Positions 1,266-58,464 of a stretch of 64,000 nt of DNA are shown piece after piece. This stretch comes from Bacilli bacterium. Its GTDB lineage: Bacteria; Bacillota_I; Bacilli_A; RFN20; CAG-826. The position numbers and the translations under genes were made by a program. The notes under the pieces were generated by a model, which saw nothing but the letters and a program-made list of their open reading frames with translations, ran no database searches and was not told the origin of the DNA. Location of the stretch: assembly GCA_036649855.1 (NCBI GenBank), contig JAVWAV010000003.1, positions 10,286 through 74,285 of the forward strand, given 5' to 3'. How positions within the stretch are numbered: position 1 is the stretch's first letter; each line of letters begins with the position of its first letter.

Positions 1266-2156
1266 CTATTTAATAACAGTGGTATCTGCCCACTTACCTC
1301 TATCCCATCCTTGAATTCCATATCCAATAGATTCATCATAGATATCTTGTCCATTAACAACAGTTCCTTTATTCATCCATCCTGTTGTATTATTGATGTA
1401 ACTCCAACCATTATCTTCTGCATCCGTTATTGTTATTCCTAGAACTAATTCAGAAGAACTGTAACCTAATTCTACTGCTTTTGCATATAATGCTTCTTGA
1501 GTTACATTTAATGTCGCTAAGTTAATTGATCCTATTATATTTATAACATCATGAATATCGTGTCCGAAATACATGTTATTGTTAAGAATATAATTTACTA
1601 CAATTCCTACACCTGTTATATTAGGTAGAACATATTGTTCCAACATTTCTCTTGACCAAATATCGTTTGTTCCTGTGATATCCATTTGGACAGTCATTGG
1701 AGTTTGTGAAACACTTGAATTACTATAATCTGTTATTTCACATTTTATTATTGAACTAAATATATTTACTAATTTAGATAAAGACTCTCTATTTGCTGTA
1801 GATGTTCTTTTTAATCCATTCCCTAATATTGCTATTTTTAATTGTTGTTCGTATAATTCTTGATCCACTGTTCCGTTTTCTTTCAAAGATTTTTCAATAC
1901 ATATGTCTAATCTTTCTGCGATCTTTTTAAGTATGTCTCCTGTTGCATCTGTTATATTTAATTTATTTAAGATATATTCTACAGTGTCTACAGAAGATTG
2001 AATATAGTTACTAAATATCTTCATCAGATCTATAAATTTAGGATACTCTCTTATATATACAGGAATTAGACGAGTATATTTATTTTCTTTTCGATACTTT
2101 TCATCGAAATCAGAATTTTCAAATACATCATTATTCGTGCTTTGATATACTACCAT
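1266..2156 (-). CDS. baseplate/tail-fibre-associated protein (XkdU/DUF2612-like position)
   Basis: Directly follows the baseplate J-like gene, as in PBSX-type tail modules. Similarity is judged by eye only. Confidence 0.4.
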   Translation of the reverse strand: MVVYQSTNNDVFENSDFDEKYRKENKYTRLIPVYIREYPKFIDLMKIFSNYIQSSVDTVEYILNKLNITDATGDILKKIAERLDICIEKSLKENGTVDQELYEQQLKIAILGNGLKRTSTANRESLSKLVNIFSSIIKCEITDYSNSSVSQTPMTVQMDITGTNDIWSREMLEQYVLPNITGVGIVVNYILNNNMYFGHDIHDVINIIGSINLATLNVTQEALYAKAVELGYSSSELVLGITITDAEDNGWSYINNTTGWMNKGTVVNGQDIYDESIGYGIQGWDRGKWADTTVIK

Positions 2157-2171
2157 TTAATTCCTCCTTAC

Positions 2172-3575
2172 TTAACTAATTAAATTCCAAGTTATTGCAA
2201 TATCTGTGCTATCCACTGCAACTGTTGGATATTCATTTTCTGCCACTGTAATTCTCTTTCCAGAAACAGGATTTACTGTTGTATTCACAAATAATGTATC
2301 AATATCAATAACTAAATCTTTATAATCATTACTCTGAACTACTGCAAAAACTGCAGAAGATAGACCACTATTTAATACATCATTTCCAATACCTAAATTA
2401 TTTATATAATTTCCAATATTTTGTCTTATTTGATATTCTATTGAATCTCTTTGTGTTCCAGGTCCAATTGTAGAATCTAGTGTTATTGCTACATAGCAAT
2501 CTTTCTTCGATGCTCTACTAAACTTTATGTCATATGTTGTTGAATCAATAGTTATTTGAACTGCAATTTGTCCTTCTCCTGTTGAAGCATTATAATTTTG
2601 ATATGCTGTTGGAATTGATGTTCCACAACCAAGAGACTTAAAACTCAATATAGTTTGTGCAATTTTAATATCTTCATCGTCTGTGCTGTAAGTTCCTGTT
2701 CCATCCCATGAACTTTGTCCGTCTACTATTGTCCAAATTGAATGTGGAGTCATTCCATTAGCAGCAGTTTCTGATGAATTATTTTCTATTATATGACAAT
2801 AATTCACATCTGCATTGTTTTCTACTTGTGCTATTAGTCCATCTGTAGTTCCAATTGATTCTTTATATAATTCTTTCTTATATCTTGCTCTCAATTGTGC
2901 ATCTGTTTCTTCCTGATTTCCCAATGATGAACCTACTTCATTTATAAAAGTAATTCCAGATGGAATAGATTGTGTGATAATAGTCATATCTGTATTAGTT
3001 CCATTATTATATGGATTTAATACTATATTTGTAGGATCTGTATTTTCATCTGTTGCTACAAATGTTGCAGTTCCTACATAATTTTCTTGATCTGAACCTG
3101 ATTGTATATTCTTATATTTCTCAATAGATAATATAGATGTATTTATCCATTTATTATTATTAGAGTCTTGAAGTGTTATCTCTCCAATTTGAAGAATATA
3201 TGGTCTTTCAATAGCACTATTCTGATCTATGGTTGCCTTTATCAAAACTGTGCTATTTTGTTCTGCCTTTCTTGTAATACCTACAAATGATACAACATTA
3301 TCTAGATTTGTTCCTGCTGCACCTGTAAAGGACAGTGTATTATATAATTTCTGCGTTGCACCTCCAACTTCTGCTAAACTCCCTGCTAACAAGTCTAAAA
3401 ATGAATACCACTCATTTCCTTGTTCTATAACATAATCTTCTCCATATGCTATTTTAGTAAGTGAAATTAAATCTTCTAATATTTCTCCTTTGGATGAAAC
3501 AGTCAATCCCAAAGAATTATCATAATTCATTACACTATTTATAGTTATTTCATCCATCTGATTATACCTCCACAT
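2172..3575 (-). CDS. baseplate J-like wedge protein
   Basis: 467 aa; size, position (after a gp25/W-like gene) and N-terminal region are typical of the Baseplate_J family. Confidence 0.6.
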   Translation of the reverse strand: MWRYNQMDEITINSVMNYDNSLGLTVSSKGEILEDLISLTKIAYGEDYVIEQGNEWYSFLDLLAGSLAEVGGATQKLYNTLSFTGAAGTNLDNVVSFVGITRKAEQNSTVLIKATIDQNSAIERPYILQIGEITLQDSNNNKWINTSILSIEKYKNIQSGSDQENYVGTATFVATDENTDPTNIVLNPYNNGTNTDMTIITQSIPSGITFINEVGSSLGNQEETDAQLRARYKKELYKESIGTTDGLIAQVENNADVNYCHIIENNSSETAANGMTPHSIWTIVDGQSSWDGTGTYSTDDEDIKIAQTILSFKSLGCGTSIPTAYQNYNASTGEGQIAVQITIDSTTYDIKFSRASKKDCYVAITLDSTIGPGTQRDSIEYQIRQNIGNYINNLGIGNDVLNSGLSSAVFAVVQSNDYKDLVIDIDTLFVNTTVNPVSGKRITVAENEYPTVAVDSTDIAITWNLIS

Positions 3576-3900
3576 TTATTACCGAACTTGCAGTAGTTAA
3601 TACTATTGCGTTCGCTATGTATTTTTTATTTACAATTTTGCTACTAAATTTATTTATTTCCCCAACTCCTGTAGTATTATTTATAATATCCATAATTGTT
3701 AAATCTCTCTCTTCTCCACTAGACATCTTTAGAGGAATTCCTAATAAAATATTATACAGAACTTCTCCTCGAATTATACTACATCTTGCTTCTATATTAT
3801 TTCTAACTATTTCTGTTATTTCTGATGTGCAACTAGATATATCAAAATCTTTTTGAATAATTCCATCTACTGTTGTTCTAGTTATATTGTGACTTTTCAA
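3562..3900 (-). CDS. small baseplate wedge protein (gp25/gpW/XkdS-like)
   Basis: 112 aa, TTG start, overlaps the J-like gene. Call rests on synteny with PBSX/P2-type baseplates. Confidence 0.4.
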   Translation of the reverse strand: MKSHNITRTTVDGIIQKDFDISSCTSEITEIVRNNIEARCSIIRGEVLYNILLGIPLKMSSGEERDLTIMDIINNTTGVGEINKFSSKIVNKKYIANAIVLTTASSVINVEV

Positions 3901-3914
3901 AGTGAACTCCTCCC

Positions 3915-3950
3915 CTAATTAGTATAACTGTATAATTTACAAATATTCTT
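3915..3950 (-). promoter_or_regulatory. candidate phage promoter (AGTTATACTAATTAG motif, copy 1)
   Basis: The minus strand reads AGTTATACTAATTAG immediately 5' of GGGAGG and the TTG start at 3900. The identical 15-mer occurs at 25868-25882 and 30576-30590. Confidence 0.45.
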
Positions 3951-4589
3951 CTATCTTGCATACACTAATACAGAACAATTATTTGGAGTGATTGTATATA
4001 CTCCATCTGAATTTACTAAATCTGCATGTCTTACAGTTCCATCATTTACAATTATTCTATACTGTGTGGTAGTTTGTATATCATAAACTACACTGTCCAT
4101 TTGAATTCCTGCATAAATTAATACCATTTTAATTTGTGAATATCCTTCAAATGTTTCTGTTAATGTTGATGTTGCTGAATAAGTTCCTATTAAATCCCAT
4201 TCTTCTTTATTATTAATTAATATTGCAACACAATTAGATATACTGTGTTTTCCTGCATTGGATTCTAAAAATTCATTATTCGATATTGTATTTAAATTTA
4301 TTGAGTCATTAGATCTATCTAAGTGAACACATATAACATAATCATTTATTTTTGGATATTGTCCTAGTATATAGTTGATATTATGTAATTCTGGAAGTTG
4401 TATGAACTTGCTTCCTGTAATAGTGTTTATTTCTTCTGTTATAATTGGTTTTACATTTATAGTTCTATCATTATTTACAGATATAACTCTGCATAATGTT
4501 CCAACTCTTAAATCATTCATAACTTTATTCACAGTATTATTGAATAATACATTAAAGTTTTCTGTTATCACTCCTTGAGATTGTCTCAT
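3951..4589 (-). CDS. baseplate spike/plug-like protein (gpV/XkdR-like position)
   Basis: 212 aa. The N-terminal stretch VGTLCRVISVNNDRTINVKPII looks like an OB-fold plug. Call is mainly by synteny. Confidence 0.35.
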   Translation of the reverse strand: MRQSQGVITENFNVLFNNTVNKVMNDLRVGTLCRVISVNNDRTINVKPIITEEINTITGSKFIQLPELHNINYILGQYPKINDYVICVHLDRSNDSINLNTISNNEFLESNAGKHSISNCVAILINNKEEWDLIGTYSATSTLTETFEGYSQIKMVLIYAGIQMDSVVYDIQTTTQYRIIVNDGTVRHADLVNSDGVYTITPNNCSVLVYAR

Positions 4590-45821: not shown

Positions 45822-46742
45822 TTAATACATTGATATTTCATCTTTTTCCGATCTTATTCTGTCTATCCATGTTGGAAATCTCATTGAATATTTTCCATCT
45901 GCATCTTGAGATATTTCAAAATACTTTATCTCAACTATTTTCCCTAATAGTAGTTCTTTATTATTCCAATATAATTCTCTCTGAGTATCTGTAAATCCAG
46001 AACCTACATCACATTTATATAAGTTTCCTCTATGTTCAAATTCTACTGTTATTCCACCTAATGTGTTTGTAAATCTACCTGTTCCAGAATACATATCTAA
46101 TACTTTTACATCTGCCGTCTTGAATTTTTTAACCTTCAACAAGTTCTTTGTTCTCTTACATTCGTAAGGTGAGTCTGCTATGTTTATCATAACTCCCTCT
46201 CCACCTACTGATGTTATTTTTTCCAAATAATATTCTATTTGTGATTTATCTGAACCTTGATATAGAACCTCAACTTCTTTTATCCATCTTAATTTTGGAC
46301 ACATTCCTTTTATTGAAAGATGTAACATAGACTTTCTACTCGTTGTGTCTGCTATAGATGTTCCTTTCCAGAATTCTTCTGCCTTTACCATGTCAAATAT
46401 ATGGAATATTACTCCTGTTTTTATTCCGTCTCTTCTTACTGCACTTGTAGTTGCTCTAAATAATTCTTCAGTGTCTTCAATATTTGCATCTGCTATTAAT
46501 TCTCCATCATAGAAATATCCATGAGGAAGTCTCTTCAACTCATTTTCAATGTCTAACATATCCTTATATAATTGACCTTGACGAGTATAAAGTATTACAT
46601 TTCCATCTTCTTCAACTAATGCACACATTCTACAATTATGTTTTAGAATTCCATTACAGAAAAAGTTATGATTACCTTCAACTGTTAATTCATAAGTATG
46701 TTCTTTCTGTATTTGTTTCATTCTTTTAATTCTTTCAAACAT
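45822..46742 (-). CDS. ATP-dependent DNA ligase C-terminal fragment preceded by a 36-aa C-intein
   Basis: MFERIKRMKQIQKEHTYELTVEGNHNFFCNGILKHN|CRMCALV.. Ligase motifs FYDGEL, GGEGVMI and LLKVKK follow. Confidence 0.8.
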   Translation of the reverse strand: MFERIKRMKQIQKEHTYELTVEGNHNFFCNGILKHNCRMCALVEEDGNVILYTRQGQLYKDMLDIENELKRLPHGYFYDGELIADANIEDTEELFRATTSAVRRDGIKTGVIFHIFDMVKAEEFWKGTSIADTTSRKSMLHLSIKGMCPKLRWIKEVEVLYQGSDKSQIEYYLEKITSVGGEGVMINIADSPYECKRTKNLLKVKKFKTADVKVLDMYSGTGRFTNTLGGITVEFEHRGNLYKCDVGSGFTDTQRELYWNNKELLLGKIVEIKYFEISQDADGKYSMRFPTWIDRIRSEKDEISMY

Positions 46743-48020
46743 TTATTTAATATCTCCTTATATTCTCCATTTAATATTTCTCTTTCCCAAATATTTATAA
46801 ATTTATATCCAAAACTCTTTATAAAACTTTCTCTTGCTGAGTCCCTTTCCCAAATTTGTTCAGCAGTCATTTTACCCTCGTATGTTGAAATAATATCTGA
46901 CCTTGAATATTCTCTTGGATCTGCATGACAATATCCACCATATATCTCAATCACTAATTTATATTTAGGCAATGTTATATCAGGTATTGCAAATTTAACT
47001 CTCCCATCTGCTGTTTTTATTCTAAATGGACTTCCACATTCGTCAATCACCTCTTCACCTATAGATCTTAAATAATTAGATACAGTATCATGAATTGTGC
47101 TATGACTGCATCCAGGTTTCAATCTACAACTTCCCCAAGCATTTCCGTATTTCTTTATTTTTGTAAGTTGTATTTTCTGTATTATTCCAGGTATATGATC
47201 TGGATTTTCAACTCCATATCGTTCTAAAAATGTTTGTTTTGTTTTAGGAGATTGAAAAGTATTCTTACAACCATACTTATCTATACAAGACTTCTCATAA
47301 TTAGTTCTTGTGAACTCAGTTTTTGCTGCCTCAGAATTATTTCTTAATTTAATATTTCTTTTCTTTAATTCACTTATAAAATAACATAATCTATTTATAT
47401 TTAATGATTTCTCTAAATTATATATTGACTCACCATTTTTATATCTTTTACAGAATTCATTAAGTAAAGTTTCATTTGGTTTATCTAATTCATAGCATTT
47501 TTTACAAATACCTAGATGACCAATATAACTATCTTTATATTTAAATCTTATACCACAACTTGAGATGTATTCAAATTTACTGTATTCTTTTTTTATAAAT
47601 TCAAATTCTTCTTCTGTAATGATATATCTATTTGATTTATTCTTTGTTAAATTAAAATTCAAATCTTTCAATATTCTATAAAGACATGTCTCTGATACAT
47701 TTAATTTAGTTGCAACTTCCTTCAATTTCATCTACAAACACCTCATCTTCAGAGGTTAAATATCTTACTTCTTTCCAACCATTTCTTGTCATTACTAAGT
47801 CGTTTCCTGTTATCTTTAATTTTCTTCCTGTAACTGTTTCAATTTCATACCACTCAGCATTTTTAGACAGTCCCCTCATAAAATTCTCAACTTTCTTAAA
47901 TTCTATCCGTCCAGTTTTCTCGTTATAAGATTTTACCTCTATATTAGAATAACTGTTTTCTAACGAGGATATTGTCTTTAATCCTATATTTGTTTCAACT
48001 AAAGTATCACCTGATACACA
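46635..48020 (-). mobile_element. split intein (IntN 104 aa, IntC 36 aa) with intervening free-standing homing endonuclease gene
   Basis: IntN starts CVSGDTLVETN right after ligase motif I (STKLDG). IntC ends ILKHN|C. The HEG ORF overlaps both flanking ORFs by about 25 nt. Confidence 0.75.
46718..47731 (-). CDS. free-standing homing endonuclease, Vsr/PD-(D/E)XK-like C-terminal domain with N-terminal HTH
   Basis: N-terminal KLNVSETCLYRILKDL HTH. The C-terminal FAIPDITLPKYKLVIEIYGGYCHADPR...KSFGYKFINIWE resembles Vsr/DUF559-type nucleases. Confidence 0.6.
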   Translation of the reverse strand: MKLKEVATKLNVSETCLYRILKDLNFNLTKNKSNRYIITEEEFEFIKKEYSKFEYISSCGIRFKYKDSYIGHLGICKKCYELDKPNETLLNEFCKRYKNGESIYNLEKSLNINRLCYFISELKKRNIKLRNNSEAAKTEFTRTNYEKSCIDKYGCKNTFQSPKTKQTFLERYGVENPDHIPGIIQKIQLTKIKKYGNAWGSCRLKPGCSHSTIHDTVSNYLRSIGEEVIDECGSPFRIKTADGRVKFAIPDITLPKYKLVIEIYGGYCHADPREYSRSDIISTYEGKMTAEQIWERDSARESFIKSFGYKFINIWEREILNGEYKEILNKCLKELKE

Positions 48021-48581
48021 TCCATCTAATTTGGTAGACAATATAAATTCTTTATCATTTATATAATCCGTATTTTCAAAATAATTATCTGCAAGCATTA
48101 CATTAAATACTTTTACAAATCCTTCTCCCATAACTTTATTTAATGTTGTTGCATCCATACCTAGTTTTAATTCTTTTGTAAATATCTTCTTCAACAACTC
48201 TGAATATTCTTTATGTTCGTTAATATAGTCATTTACATATCTAATATCCACATCTCTACCTGTGTTGTTTACTTTCAAATATTCTAATACATCTATATAA
48301 GTTACAATTATCTTCTCTGCAAATAAATCATTAAAAGAATAATTAGAAAAACAGGACTCTTTTTCAATCTTCTTTGAACTGAGTCCTGTTACTATTAAAC
48401 TATCATACAAGAATTTACAGGTCTCTATAAAATAATGATTGTTCGAATTTTCTCTAATTATATTTTCTTTTTCTATCCTAGATGTTGTATTAGATATATT
48501 GTTTATTATTTTATTCAGTTCTTGTAATTTCTCCTGCATTAGTTTCTCCCATATATTTATACACACTAATTCTCTGTGCAT
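47706..48581 (-). CDS. ATP-dependent DNA ligase N-terminal fragment fused to a 104-aa N-intein
   Basis: ..FILSTKLDG|CVSGDTLVETN.. (adenylation motif KxDG, then intein block A). The real start is probably the ATG at 48539 (MQEKLQEL). Confidence 0.8.
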   Translation of the reverse strand: MHRELVCINIWEKLMQEKLQELNKIINNISNTTSRIEKENIIRENSNNHYFIETCKFLYDSLIVTGLSSKKIEKESCFSNYSFNDLFAEKIIVTYIDVLEYLKVNNTGRDVDIRYVNDYINEHKEYSELLKKIFTKELKLGMDATTLNKVMGEGFVKVFNVMLADNYFENTDYINDKEFILSTKLDGCVSGDTLVETNIGLKTISSLENSYSNIEVKSYNEKTGRIEFKKVENFMRGLSKNAEWYEIETVTGRKLKITGNDLVMTRNGWKEVRYLTSEDEVFVDEIEGSCN

Positions 48582-55066: not shown

Positions 55067-57130
55067 TTACTCTCTACTTAATAATAATAGTTCTGTTTCT
55101 ACTACTGGTAATACCGAACTCTCGTATTTTATTTTACTATTTAACTCATTTATCTTCTCAAGTAAATTCTTTAATACAGCATTATCAGAACCATTTGTTC
55201 TATTTAACTGTTCTGAATATATTTTTGGAATTGATATATAATCAAAGTTATTAAATAATTTATATTTACATAAATCTGATAGAAAATTAGTAAAACTCCT
55301 AATAAATAATTTTAAGTCTTTTCCTGCTTGATATAATTCTTCAATAATTTGAATTACTTTTTCTTCTTCACAGTTATATATTGCAAAGAATAAATTAAAT
55401 AATACATCATAATCTACACTTCCTAAAATCTTAACTGCGTCTTCTAATGTTACATTATGCTTTAGACTTAAACATTTATCTAACATAGATACTGCATCTC
55501 TCATTCCACCACTTGCTAATTTTGCAATATAATCAGAAACATCTGTTGGAACAGAAATATCTGGATTCAATTCTACTTCTTTATTAATAATATAATTTAT
55601 TCTATTGAATATTCCAGAATAGGATATTCTAGTTAAATCAAATCTCTGAACTCTATTAATTATAGTTGCAGGAATCTTTTGTGGATCTGTTGTGCAAAAT
55701 ATGAATATTGACTTTGCAGGTGGTTCTTCTAATGTTTTTAACATTGCATTCCAAGCATTAATACTCAGCATATGACAATTATGAACTAAGATATTATTAG
55801 CAAAATATGAGTTATGTCCCTCAACTTCTAAATCGTATAAGTAAGTAAATCCTTCTCTACTGTCTGTATCTGAGATATAACTTGAGAACAATTCATCATT
55901 ATATCCTCGTTTGTAAATCTCAACACTGTCCACCCTATACTCTTCAAAAATTCCGTCTTCTTTGTATCCTGCTGCAAACGATCTCTCAATTTGTGGGAAG
56001 CACCATCCACCTCTATCGCCAACTTTATCTCTCTCCATCCTAGGTCTACTTTGTAATTGGTAGGATACCCCGAGTCTCTGCTCATTTTCGTTGGTATTGC
56101 TAACTCTAATTCGTATTTCTGGTTCAACATCTTCCAAAGAGTTAACTGAGGTTTTGTATAACTCCCATTTCCACCTCTCACTGTAAAATAATGATTCCCA
56201 TTCTCCTTCCGAGTATTCTTCATTTTTTCCATTGTTTCTAGGTTGCTCATTGGATTCTTTAATTTCATTCGTTCTGATGTTTTCTTCCAAAAATCTCTCA
56301 TTTTCTGCGATGGTTCTCTCGTCCTTGATAATTCCAAACTTTGATTTCTCAATAATTGAGCGCATTCCTTTGAACAAGTCTGAACTGAAGAACTTATAGT
56401 AGTCTGGAATTCCTTTCCACAAATTTTGCAATTCTTCATCAATCTTCTCTTCATAGCATTTCTTGCTAATCTGATCTTTGCACATTCCTTTGAGCAACAT
56501 CTCTTTCCTGTGAACCAATAAAACACTTTTCCACAGTTTGTGCATATATTCTTTACTGTATACTTTTTCTCCATTTCTTAAATGTTGAGCCTCAACCCAA
56601 CCCTCCTCTGTAAAATATAACTCATCTACAGTAGTCAGAGTTGCCTTTCCATTAATTGTAACAATGCACAGTCTGGATATATCTACCTTGTTCTTAAAAG
56701 TATTATTTACTCTGCCTAATCCACACAGATTTTCAACATAGTCTCCCACTTTGATTTCAGATATTTTTTTATATCCCTTATCTGTTGATATTAGAGTATC
56801 TTTATGAAAACATTCATCTACAATGAATACCTTATACTCTGCTTCAATTGACTGATAATTTGCTTTATCTATGATTGATCTCATATCTTCAACACCATTA
56901 TTTGATGCTGCATCCAATTCTGTTAATCCACCCTCACCATGATTTATTTCCTTCGTTAGAATTCTTCCTAGTGTCGTCTTTCCTGTTCCACTAGGACCAA
57001 CAAATAAATAACAATTTCTTATAGTGTTTGTTGCAATTTGATTTTTTAGTATTTCTACAACTTCCTTCTGCTCACTAACATCCTCAAATGAATGTGGTCT
57101 ATATTTTGTATATAATGGAATTACTGCCAT
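55067..57130 (-). CDS. dnaX: DNA polymerase III gamma/tau-like clamp loader ATPase interrupted by a 345-aa intein
   Basis: YRPHSFEDV..LFVGPSGTGKTT..VFIVDE|CFHKDTLIST ... NNILVHN|CHMLSINAWNAMLKTLEEPP. Confidence 0.85.
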   Translation of the reverse strand: MAVIPLYTKYRPHSFEDVSEQKEVVEILKNQIATNTIRNCYLFVGPSGTGKTTLGRILTKEINHGEGGLTELDAASNNGVEDMRSIIDKANYQSIEAEYKVFIVDECFHKDTLISTDKGYKKISEIKVGDYVENLCGLGRVNNTFKNKVDISRLCIVTINGKATLTTVDELYFTEEGWVEAQHLRNGEKVYSKEYMHKLWKSVLLVHRKEMLLKGMCKDQISKKCYEEKIDEELQNLWKGIPDYYKFFSSDLFKGMRSIIEKSKFGIIKDERTIAENERFLEENIRTNEIKESNEQPRNNGKNEEYSEGEWESLFYSERWKWELYKTSVNSLEDVEPEIRIRVSNTNENEQRLGVSYQLQSRPRMERDKVGDRGGWCFPQIERSFAAGYKEDGIFEEYRVDSVEIYKRGYNDELFSSYISDTDSREGFTYLYDLEVEGHNSYFANNILVHNCHMLSINAWNAMLKTLEEPPAKSIFIFCTTDPQKIPATIINRVQRFDLTRISYSGIFNRINYIINKEVELNPDISVPTDVSDYIAKLASGGMRDAVSMLDKCLSLKHNVTLEDAVKILGSVDYDVLFNLFFAIYNCEEEKVIQIIEELYQAGKDLKLFIRSFTNFLSDLCKYKLFNNFDYISIPKIYSEQLNRTNGSDNAVLKNLLEKINELNSKIKYESSVLPVVETELLLLSRE
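55778..56812 (-). mobile_element. intein in the DnaX Walker B/sensor region
   Basis: Starts with Cys after IVDE and ends with HN before Cys+1. The splicing blocks occupy only the first ~85 and last ~26 aa; the interior is E/K/R-rich. Confidence 0.8.
55828..56574 (-). CDS. Vsr/DUF559-like homing endonuclease ORF nested out of frame inside the DnaX intein
   Basis: Two zinc-ribbon units are present (CTNCGKVF..CSKECA; CKICGKEF..CSKECA). The C-terminal YKVDLGWREIKLAIEVDGASHK...LKSIGWTVLRFTNEDI is the DUF559/Vsr-type signature. Confidence 0.7.
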   Translation of the reverse strand: MEKKYTVKNICTNCGKVFYWFTGKRCCSKECAKIRLARNAMKRRLMKNCKICGKEFQTTISSSVQTCSKECAQLLRNQSLELSRTREPSQKMRDFWKKTSERMKLKNPMSNLETMEKMKNTRKENGNHYFTVRGGNGSYTKPQLTLWKMLNQKYELELAIPTKMSRDSGYPTNYKVDLGWREIKLAIEVDGASHKLRDRLQQDTKKTEFLKSIGWTVLRFTNEDIMMNCSQVISQIQTVEKDLLTYTI

Positions 57131-57159: not shown

Positions 57160-57510
57160 TTAATTATTATAATCCTCATTTATTTTATCACATAAATATT
57201 TCATTGTTTCCTTATCTATAACATAAAAATTATCTGTTCCTGGACCAAAATTAAATGCAAGTGAATAAAATAATTTATGCATTATTCTTGATTCTTTTTC
57301 TATCTTTTCTAAAACTTCTTTTTTAACTGAATATGAACTTTTCTCTGTTACACTTGTTTTGCATTCCACAAGTATTTTATTTAGTCTAACATCTCCCAAT
57401 GAAAATTGAGATGCTCCCGAACCACCTACTTGTTTCCCTCCAAGTTCTTTTGCTACTTTTCTTTCCTGAGCATTTGAATAATATTTTGTAGAATTCTTAT
57501 TTTGCGTCAT
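57160..57510 (-). CDS. PD-(D/E)XK nuclease-like protein (resolvase-like)
   Basis: ERKVAKELGG..GGSGAS..LGDV..ILVECKTS. Confidence 0.5.
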   Translation of the reverse strand: MTQNKNSTKYYSNAQERKVAKELGGKQVGGSGASQFSLGDVRLNKILVECKTSVTEKSSYSVKKEVLEKIEKESRIMHKLFYSLAFNFGPGTDNFYVIDKETMKYLCDKINEDYNN

Positions 57511-57760
57511 TTAATATTTCCTCTAAAACTTTCTTACATTCACTACATAGAACCACTTCTGTGTTATCTTTAGATGTATATCTCTTCACATCATTATGAA
57601 TTCCACATAAATTACATCTTATAGTAGGAACAGAAATTATTACTTTGCCATCTATTACTTCTGCAGTAACATCTATTCCACCCTGTAATTTCAATTCGTT
57701 TCTAATTTCTCTAGGTAAAGTTATTCTACCGTCACTTGAATACTTTAATAAGAATTTCAT
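57497..57760 (-). CDS. AbrB/SpoVT-domain protein with C-terminal zinc ribbon
   Basis: GRITLPREIRNELKLQGGIDV is SpoVT-AbrB-like; CNLCG...CSEC. Confidence 0.55.
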   Translation of the reverse strand: MKFLLKYSSDGRITLPREIRNELKLQGGIDVTAEVIDGKVIISVPTIRCNLCGIHNDVKRYTSKDNTEVVLCSECKKVLEEILNDAK

Positions 57761-58464
57761 TTTAATATCTCCTCTCTTTTGTTTTTCTTTTTCATACCTC
57801 TTGTATATCCTAATTTCAAATAAAATTCAAATTCACACTCCTGAACCATCTTGTCTACATTCCCATTATTGATGTGAATTCTTCCCTTAAGAGCATAATT
57901 TGTCTTTCCTGTGAGCGGATGGTTAATGCTTTGAAGTTGTCTAGAATGTCTAGAATGTTTCTTTCCATAAAATGGATTACCGAATATTTTAATTTGAATC
58001 TTGGTTGCAATACTGTTTTTTATTCTCTGCTCTTTTGAAATAATTTTACCCTTTTCAGAATTTGATATTTTTGTTTTCAATTCGTCTGATAAGTGCCCGC
58101 CTAATGCTGCGTCTCTTAAATTATAATTTTGATTTGAATTCACACCCCCGTAATAGTCTATCCAATATTGTTCTCGTTTCATCAAGTCTTCATCATTCAC
58201 ATTATCACATGTTTCTATTATTCTAAAGGCAAAATTCTCAATACCGTATTTGTTAAAAGCACTTTGTAAGTGTTTATTACAGTGACTGTTACTAAATAAC
58301 TCTTTTTGATGAGTATCTAGTCTTCTCGCAACATTTACACTCTGTCCTATGTATCGATTGCCATTTTTTAGATTACATATTTCATATATTCCTCTATGGC
58401 AATTCTTCTCAGAATAATTATAATTATCTTCTAATACGAACCATTCCATTAAATTCTTCCTCAC
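57757..58464 (-). CDS. GIY-YIG homing endonuclease with NUMOD3-like repeats
   Basis: GIYEICNLKNGNRYIGQSVNVARRLDTHQ...ENFAFRIIE; repeats GKIISKEQRIKNS and GKKHSRHSRQLQS. Confidence 0.8.
   Translation of the reverse strand: MRKNLMEWFVLEDNYNYSEKNCHRGIYEICNLKNGNRYIGQSVNVARRLDTHQKELFSNSHCNKHLQSAFNKYGIENFAFRIIETCDNVNDEDLMKREQYWIDYYGGVNSNQNYNLRDAALGGHLSDELKTKISNSEKGKIISKEQRIKNSIATKIQIKIFGNPFYGKKHSRHSRQLQSINHPLTGKTNYALKGRIHINNGNVDKMVQECEFEFYLKLGYTRGMKKKNKREEILK

Follow-up and report, generated by a model that had tools for sequence, protein, structure and literature searches.

We examined a 64,000-nucleotide stretch of contig JAVWAV010000003.1 from a Bacilli bacterium assembly (GCA_036649855.1), hereafter the window (GC content 29.6%; coordinates are window positions unless they follow the handle of a relative), in which a dnaX-like clamp-loader gene contains an intein whose coding sequence also carries, in another frame of the same strand, an open reading frame (ORF) for a nuclease. 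The clamp-loader gene (55067..57130, on the minus strand, as are all window features below) runs for 687 codons plus a stop, has no internal stop and stays open through the intein. It matched the Pfam families DNA_pol3_delta2, DNA_pol3_gamma3, AAA and, weakly, Intein_splicing (34 bits, below the cut-off of 35.8), and corresponded to the PHROG clamp loader family with E=1.5e-78. Alignment of relatives placed the dnaX segment 5′ of the intein at 56813..57130, ending at the Walker-B Asp-Glu (IVDE). The 345-residue intein (CFHKDTLIST...NNILVHN; 55778..56812), delimited from the ORF, Pfam, the alignment, an AlphaFold2 (AF2) model and Foldseek, lies between IVDE and CHMLS, and the C-extein, delimited from the ORF, Pfam and the alignment, extends from CHMLS to the stop (55067..55777). 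The class 1 nucleophile is present as Cys107 of DnaX (Cys1 of the intein, in CFHKD) directly after IVDE, and the intein ends in ILVHN followed by the +1 Cys of CHMLS, an ending that was invariant in the alignment of relatives.

AF2 gave a HINT fold in the dnaX frame, consisting of two well-folded lobes with values of pLDDT (predicted local distance difference test) mostly >90. The N-terminal splicing lobe (approximately intein residues 1-90, with blocks A and B; 56543..56812; pLDDT 89-97, β strands) aligned with residues 9-97 of gp41-1, a split intein that occurs naturally in the fractured genes reported by Dassa et al. 2009 (PMC2677866). The C-terminal lobe (residues 290-345, beginning RVDSVEIYKRG, with blocks F and G; 55778..55945; pLDDT 92-96) is still present in mini-intein alleles. 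Foldseek with the intein model returned 29 matches to the intein/Hint superfamily at E<=1e-3 (inteins, bacterial intein-like domains and hedgehog), with gp41-1 as the top match; gp41-1 was also the sole PDB sequence match (phmmer, E=2.3e-6). Unlike fractured genes, in which the N- and C-terminal intein parts (IntN and IntC) lie on separate ORFs, the window dnaX gene has a continuous host frame, and its lobes are joined by an open linker of about 195 residues (approximately intein residues 96-289; 55946..56527).

Over this linker lies an ORF of 248 codons plus a stop (55828..56574) in the +1 frame of dnaX, at an offset of 556 nucleotides. It matched Pfam DUF559 (E=7.6e-16; 58 bits against a cut-off of 20.6) and contains two CxxCGKxF...CSKECA units and the string YKVDLGWREIKLAIEVDGASH...GWTVLRF. 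AF2 modelled the nested protein at pLDDT 90.4, against 31-61 for the host-frame linker, with two zinc-ribbon hairpins, a helical region and an α/β core. Foldseek matched this core to the DUF559 protein 3hrl and the catalytic domain of I-Bth0305I (3r3p), both with probability 1.0 and TMt 0.72-0.73, and a profile of 30 nuclease homologues searched against the PDB retrieved the same two entries (3hrl, 9e-14; 3r3p, 3e-3). Zinc ribbon 1 (C11, C14 ... C26/27, C31; 56482..56544) was read from the translation and contains the modelled strands E7-10 and E17-20, and zinc ribbon 2 (C49, C52, C67, C71; 56362..56430) was drawn from the alignment of the 30 homologues, where C67 is invariant and C49, C52 and C71 are conserved in at least 90%. 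PHROG 1271 matches nuclease residues 4-86, spanning both ribbons. The PD-(D/E)xK Vsr-like core (55861..56148) comprises residues 143-238, the extent of the DUF559 match, and is also covered by the structural and profile matches. Within it, a candidate catalytic motif of the EDxHD type, E188-x-D190-x3-H194 ... D203 (55966..56013), aligns with the I-Bth0305I and 3hrl cores, its four residues being invariant across the homologues. Every invariant residue of that alignment is intact in the window copy. By its motifs and model, the nested product is predicted to be a two-zinc-ribbon DUF559/Vsr-like nuclease of the I-Bth0305I (EDxHD) type.

The nested ORF exceeds the linker at both ends: its first ~10 codons lie on the end of the N lobe and its last ~39 on the first strands of the C lobe. 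At the latter end (55828..55945), nuclease residues 210-248 (GWTVLRFTNEDI...) are co-encoded with intein residues 290-328 (RVDSVEIYKRG...). Both AF2 models are confident there and both motifs are conserved in their respective alignments, giving a ~39-codon segment that encodes parts of two folded domains at once. A first-pass annotation, made from the sequence alone, had described an intein that stays contiguous although a gene of the Vsr/DUF559 type is overprinted on it out of frame, and this architecture is real. The ORF list and the sequence confirmed all of its coordinates for the 687-codon gene, the intein and the 248-codon ORF, and the paired zinc-ribbon units and DUF559/Vsr core that it had recognized were recovered as motifs, Pfam match and predicted fold. 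It had also placed the nested ORF exactly between the splicing blocks, a detail that the overlaps with both lobes correct.

Two open frames and the selection acting on them

Stops in dnaX outside the nested ORF numbered 47 in the +1 frame and 90 in the +2 frame, and the longest alternative same-strand open run across the 51 other window ORFs of at least 150 amino acids was 63 codons, against 248 here. When the nuclease protein was held fixed and synonymous codons were redrawn from window codon usage in 20,000 trials, 19.0±3.3 stops were expected in the dnaX frame (minimum 6) and 0 were observed. A host-frame stop arises wherever a nuclease codon that precedes AA, AG or GA has T at its third position. 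In these stop-prone contexts, T-ending codons accounted for 0/91 in the window element versus 34% in other genes, and G occupied 32% of nuclease third positions versus 10% genome-wide. Across 66 unique loci of the family, T was found in 0/4,531 such contexts versus 31.8% in exteins, and the mean expectation was 17.7 stops per linker. The chance of both frames being open is 1e-15 or less; the first-pass view that the coincidence exceeds chance therefore holds far more strongly than its estimate of ~1e-9, which was too conservative. The hydropathy, charge and hydrophobic fraction of the linkers matched those of stop-free resampling (mean z ~0 to 0.7, 66 loci). The E/K/R-rich linker is a by-product of nuclease sequence and stop avoidance, and because stop-free synonymous resampling reproduces its composition, extra selection for a hydrophilic or disordered linker is unneeded and was rejected.

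The same nesting recurs widely. Searches with the intein recovered DnaX, terminase and helicase proteins that align over the whole intein, linker included, at 27-41% identity, and the conserved host-frame strings LQSRPR and DRGGW overlie the catalytic core of the nuclease in the other frame. The nested ORF is likewise in the +1 frame at loci L001 and L003, and L002 shares this nesting, its nuclease frame containing one stop. Scanning viral contigs (IMG/VR) with the nuclease alignment yielded 287 relatives. Frames were counted in the best 80, of which 79 lacked any stop in the frame that lies +2 from the nuclease, corresponding to a host ORF of 650-2248 amino acids; the remaining (third) frame held 9-36 stops, at GC contents of 27-66%. 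In 185,579 species genomes that were scanned, the nuclease had at least 511 matches, and among the matches listed, 39 full-length relatives from genomes or metagenome-assembled genomes (MAGs) were examined, 36 of which showed the same nesting. The host frame was thus free of stops in 115/119 related loci (best 80 viral plus 39 genomic listed), in support of the first-pass annotation. Hosts comprise clamp-loader AAA+ proteins and SNF2, ResIII and DEAD helicases, with a terminase also in the family. The junction of clamp-loader hosts, and of many helicase hosts, reads DE/CF...VHN/C(H) (slashes at the splice junctions) and lies immediately after Walker B; in several helicase hosts, one or both junction motifs escaped our motif search.

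Forty GenBank phage records match the nuclease, including Vibrio phage CP-T1, Nahant Vibrio phages, Pseudomonas phage MR14 and Corynebacterium phage phi673, and in 40/40 the annotation under the match is the host gene only, for example 'helicase' or 'coil containing protein'. In CP-T1 (L084, NC_019457), gp10 (1549-4530), which RefSeq labels 'putative helicase', is a 993-amino-acid helicase with a +1-frame ORF of 249 amino acids inside it (2432-3181), and the nested nuclease is unannotated. A large family (287 viral and at least 511 genomic nuclease matches) is systematically overlooked by annotation in this way, and because the nested ORF is unannotated, intein surveys will misclassify such elements as decaying inteins or mini-inteins.

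We used eleven close pairs among the relatives, none of them close to the window copy, to count substitutions by codon position. In the exteins and the single-coded splicing domain, 60% of differences fell at host position 3 and 25% at host position 1, and 53-54% were synonymous in the host frame versus 18-19% in the nuclease frame. In the overlap, 22% fell at host position 3 and 53% at host position 1 (which is nuclease position 3), and 16% were synonymous in the host frame versus 46% in the nuclease frame. The substitutions are thus frame-specific, which supports the first-pass annotation, and their pattern in the overlap marks the nuclease as the protein under purifying selection. The host frame there behaves like a non-coding frame barred only from stops. 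Some pairs also differed far less in the intein than in the exteins (L050/L056, ~2.5% versus 15%; L009/L012, 4-7% versus 23%), and in several pairs this low divergence includes the single-coded lobes, a pattern that indicates recent lateral transfer of an element that is apparently still mobile.

In most relatives the nested ATG lies 2-17 codons ahead of the first CxxC, and many carry AGGAG 6-10 nucleotides upstream of the start, a motif supplied by the KGD/EGD codons with which block B ends in the host frame. The nuclease frame is shut by a stop 2-20 codons before the ATG in most relatives and in the window, where TAA-GAA-ATG (56572..56580) puts the stop two codons before the nested start; in a minority, the open stretch ahead of the first CxxC reaches up to ~50 codons. 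At about ten loci the first in-frame ATG is much farther upstream, by up to ~49 codons; one locus has TTG only and one has no start before the CxxC.

Other states of the element and its surroundings

Two related nucleases are free-standing. L102 (2998-4927) and L118 (2869-5299) have 16 and 27 stops, respectively, in the frame corresponding to the host frame; L102 lies directly upstream of an intein-less helicase and L118 one short ORF upstream, the Walker B reading DE(S/C)HH, and both are possibly intein-independent homing elements aimed at the same site. Stand-alone bacterial DUF559 genes mostly have stops in that frame as well, and the exceptions without stops (L139, L140 and L153) have GC contents of 0.67-0.69 and short matches of 61-63 codons. 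In L110 (2298-4577), from a Lacinutrix sp. MAG contig, the element is fractured into a helicase-N part with IntN, a nuclease in the +1 frame and IntC with helicase-C. The N and C parts share a frame, 14 stops interrupt what used to be the linker, and the separate ATG of the IntC part lies within the 3′ end of the nuclease gene. The 14-27 stops in L102, L118 and L110 indicate that an open host frame is not intrinsic to the nuclease protein. L048 (2238-4379, DnaX-type) carries one stop in the host linker, and an internal ATG may serve its IntC part; this may be a gene that is beginning to fracture, or the assembly may be in error. In a crude neighbour-joining tree of 102 nuclease proteins, L048 fell inside a clade of nested forms, and the tree gave no polarity between fractured or free-standing and nested forms.

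The closest extein relative of the window copy, P0021/L165 (1299-2891), has a 189-amino-acid mini-intein with the host frame still open, and what is left of the nuclease in its +1 frame is reduced by deletion, riddled with stops and has Y in place of H194. In P0007/9/12 the N-terminal part of the nuclease gene is gone. The host frame of these decay products stays open while the nuclease gene is deleted or broken. No in-frame (bifunctional) version of this nuclease with the intein was seen among the related loci, and the overprinted state, present in 115/119 loci examined, is the dominant, long-lived state of the family. The first-pass suggestion that overprinting is an evolutionary intermediate between fractured genes and bifunctional inteins is correspondingly weak. 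Its proposed link to fractured genes is genuine: the same element is fractured in L110, the closest solved intein is gp41-1 and the window itself holds a fractured gene.

That gene, an ATP-dependent DNA ligase (45822-48581), consists of three ORFs: ligase-N with a Hint/IntN part (47706-48581), a free-standing endonuclease-like ORF (46718-47731; DUF7487, weak DUF559, helix–turn–helix) and IntC with the ligase adenylation and OB domains (45822-46742). The ligase endonuclease, at 22% identity and in a different Pfam family, was rejected as a member of the same subfamily as the nested nuclease. Just upstream of dnaX are a Holliday-junction-resolvase-like gene (57160-57510) and a GIY-YIG-type homing endonuclease gene (57757-58464; PHROG 314/7168/5123), and the replication module of the window is dense with selfish nucleases.

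Additional mobile elements accompany some relatives. L052 (936-4850) is an SNF2 helicase with apparently two inteins: in the upstream intein an HNH_3 domain (residues 388-430) is encoded in frame, and the second is a Walker-B intein with an out-of-frame Vsr-like nuclease. In L003 (4642-5977) and L002 (4619-6344), dnaX is also cut after ~520 amino acids by a free-standing NUMOD3/GIY-YIG-like endonuclease gene, leaving DnaX domain III on a separate ORF of 168-170 amino acids; no intein is visible at that break.

A proposed homing cycle and its rivals

We propose that a mobile, non-canonical intein has entered a phage clamp-loader gene of the DnaX type, directly behind the Walker-B Asp-Glu. The dnaX frame would be read straight through the N-extein, the HINT N lobe, the ~195-residue, predicted-unstructured junk linker, the HINT C lobe and the C-extein, and protein splicing would remove all 345 intein residues to yield a 342-amino-acid clamp-loader subunit. 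A separate 248-amino-acid homing endonuclease would be made in the +1 frame from its own internal start, with the zinc ribbons as putative DNA-binding modules. This nuclease would cut intein-less alleles at the Walker-B coding sequence, and repair would copy the intein and the nuclease gene together. Selection would then maintain the protein sequence in the nuclease frame and act in the host frame only against stops, mainly through the absence of T before AA, AG or GA. For the family, we consider this combination of cis-splicing from a read-through precursor and separate translation of an overprinted homing endonuclease to be likely; our confidence that the window copy in particular is active is lower.

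Several observations weigh against this proposal. At the block-B position (56621..56623) the window intein has Glu64 (GAG) in place of the TxxH histidine (T61-V-D-E64), a substitution unique to this copy, with ~67 relatives and gp41-1 having His there. No other intein residue is described as being so strongly conserved as the block-B His, and many inteins require it, although a small group does without it by compensating in other ways (PMC6333167). Judging from this residue, splicing of the window copy may be slow or lost; with all other splice-site residues intact (Cys1, block F/G, the penultimate His, the terminal Asn and the +1 Cys), its splicing competence is something that we infer. The nested ATG of the window (56572-56574) sits where relatives carry the Shine–Dalgarno (SD) sequence and has no SD at normal spacing, the only candidate being a GAGG ~15 nucleotides upstream. 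GenBank phages contained no near-identical DNA and public assemblies did not contain the exact window DnaX protein, so the window sequence itself is without independent confirmation. More generally, splicing, translation of the nested ORF from its internal start, the place of cleavage and homing are steps that we infer.

Glu64, together with the weak start context of the nested ATG, would also fit a window copy in decay, with an intein that splices poorly, a nuclease that is unexpressed, or both, and open frames that are a recent relic. A homing cycle predicts such decay, and close relatives (L165/P0021 and P0007/9/12) are decayed alleles. We nevertheless regard this as unlikely: the invariant nuclease residues are all intact, neither frame has acquired any of the ~19 stops expected after constraint was lost, and the remaining splice-site residues, from Cys1 and block F/G to the penultimate His, terminal Asn and +1 Cys, are in place. 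A few natural inteins function without the block-B His (PMC6333167), and selection should act strongly against an intein that fails to splice when it lies in the Walker-B/sensor region of a clamp-loader ATPase. If instead the gene were functionally fractured, with the linker untranslated in the host frame and the N and C halves trans-spliced as in the window ligase, needless read-through would let ~18 stops build up, as in L110, L102 and L118, whereas 115/119 loci have none. This makes a functional fracture very improbable, even with fractured relatives at hand (L110, with 14 stops and its own IntC ATG, and L048, with one stop) and with a natural split intein, gp41-1, as the closest solved structure.

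Genes for DnaX are known for programmed frameshifting. Such frameshifting, or the indels that metagenomic assemblies can carry, might mean that the nuclease is really in frame with the intein or is made as an IntN–nuclease fusion. The same +1 phase, however, recurs in >100 independent assemblies as well as in genomes of isolates, CP-T1 (NC_019457) among them, indel errors leave the open host frame unexplained, and in the window and most relatives a fusion would have little space, given the nuclease-frame stop 2-20 codons before the ATG. On the basis of the upstream stop position and the conserved phase, we rejected both a programmed frameshift fusion and a sequencing frameshift, which we find scarcely credible.

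A broader scenario would extend the splicing and homing model to the history of the family, and we offer it tentatively, as possible rather than probable. A single-origin cassette of intein and nuclease, always in the +1 arrangement, might hop among ATPase genes that are unrelated but have the Walker-B DE-x-H coding sequence in common, with overprinting as its default, long-lived state and with the SD and the C-terminus built into splicing-domain codons. Fractured genes and gp41-1-type split inteins would then arise by nonsense mutations in the linker (one stop, as in L048, then 14, as in L110) and not the reverse. If true, this nonsense route from an overprinted cassette would be a concrete, testable path for the birth of split inteins, of which gp41-1 and others are widely used as protein-engineering tools. 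Because free-standing, overprinted, single-stop, fractured and degenerate forms occur side by side, the origin of split inteins is directly testable in this family. The locus is also a clean case of long same-strand overprinting, with ~250 codons shared by a selfish nuclease gene and a stop-free linker.

Comparison with known systems

The first-pass annotation was aware of no described intein with an endonuclease in an alternative frame, a claim of novelty that was wrong: out-of-frame and antisense cases are already published. Early non-canonical inteins are attributed to Gorbalenya 1998, as cited in two later preprints (10.64898/2026.09.14.751524 and 10.1101/2025.01.02.630785). In the literature that we searched, we did not find a same-strand, +1-frame Vsr-like/DUF559 endonuclease inside a contiguous intein, a description of the size and host range of the Walker-B family, or a description of coexisting free-standing, overprinted, fractured and degenerate states of one element.

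The cyanobacterial DnaX intein, in which a LAGLIDADG enzyme is encoded in an overlapping ORF under frame-dependent selection (10.64898/2026.09.14.751524) and which is inserted immediately after Walker B (PMC4760082), resembles the window element in host family, insertion point and contiguous intein. Both also have an endonuclease ORF over a disordered in-frame linker, purifying selection in the endonuclease frame and coexisting mini-intein alleles. Unlike its LAGLIDADG enzyme, the nuclease here combines zinc ribbons with a Vsr-like/DUF559 (EDxHD-type) core, and the family here is found in phages and spans helicases and a terminase too. The splicing domain is nearest to phage gp41-1 and is 18% identical to the Spirulina DnaX mini-intein 7cfv (Foldseek structural alignment), suggesting that the window element is probably independent of the cyanobacterial one.

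The non-canonical inteins of actinobacteriophages carry antisense LAGLIDADG, antisense VSR-like and frame-3 EndoVII-like endonucleases (10.1101/2025.01.02.630785). As here, the endonuclease lies outside the intein frame and the in-frame segment is unstructured, and a shared feature is the proposed origin by invasion of an intein by a free-standing endonuclease gene. Their VSR-like enzyme is antisense and their same-strand case is EndoVII-like, whereas here the VSR-like nuclease is on the same strand in the +1 frame; the sites here, in contrast to theirs, are Walker-B sites of clamp loaders and helicases in non-actinobacterial phages, at >100 loci. A related case without a splicing domain is the out-of-frame HNH of ShiLan (PMC11855218), likewise an unannotated endonuclease gene nested in a host ORF that is open in frame. 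There the enzyme is an HNH and the insert is kept in the protein, whereas the Vsr-like nuclease here lies within an intein.

The fractured genes described by Dassa et al. 2009 (PMC2677866) combine split inteins, including gp41-1 (PDB 6qaz), with free-standing Vsr-like endonuclease genes. They share with the window element the order IntN, Vsr-like gene, IntC, hosts in phage DNA metabolism and a 3′ end of the endonuclease gene that overlaps the IntC coding region. Their frames are interrupted and their products spliced in trans, whereas the host frame of the window element runs on uninterrupted through the endonuclease gene, leaving a contiguous intein. The nuclease itself shares its catalytic fold and E-x-D-x3-H...D motif with I-Bth0305I of the EDxHD family (PMC3239194; 3r3p) and with DUF559 (3hrl). 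I-Bth0305I is encoded by a group I intron; here, by contrast, the nuclease is overprinted on an intein and has two N-terminal zinc ribbons. Since out-of-frame intein endonucleases are an already published concept, the finding extends known biology and overturns nothing: Vsr-like overprinting in the +1 frame of the Walker-B family is a further variant of a known arrangement.

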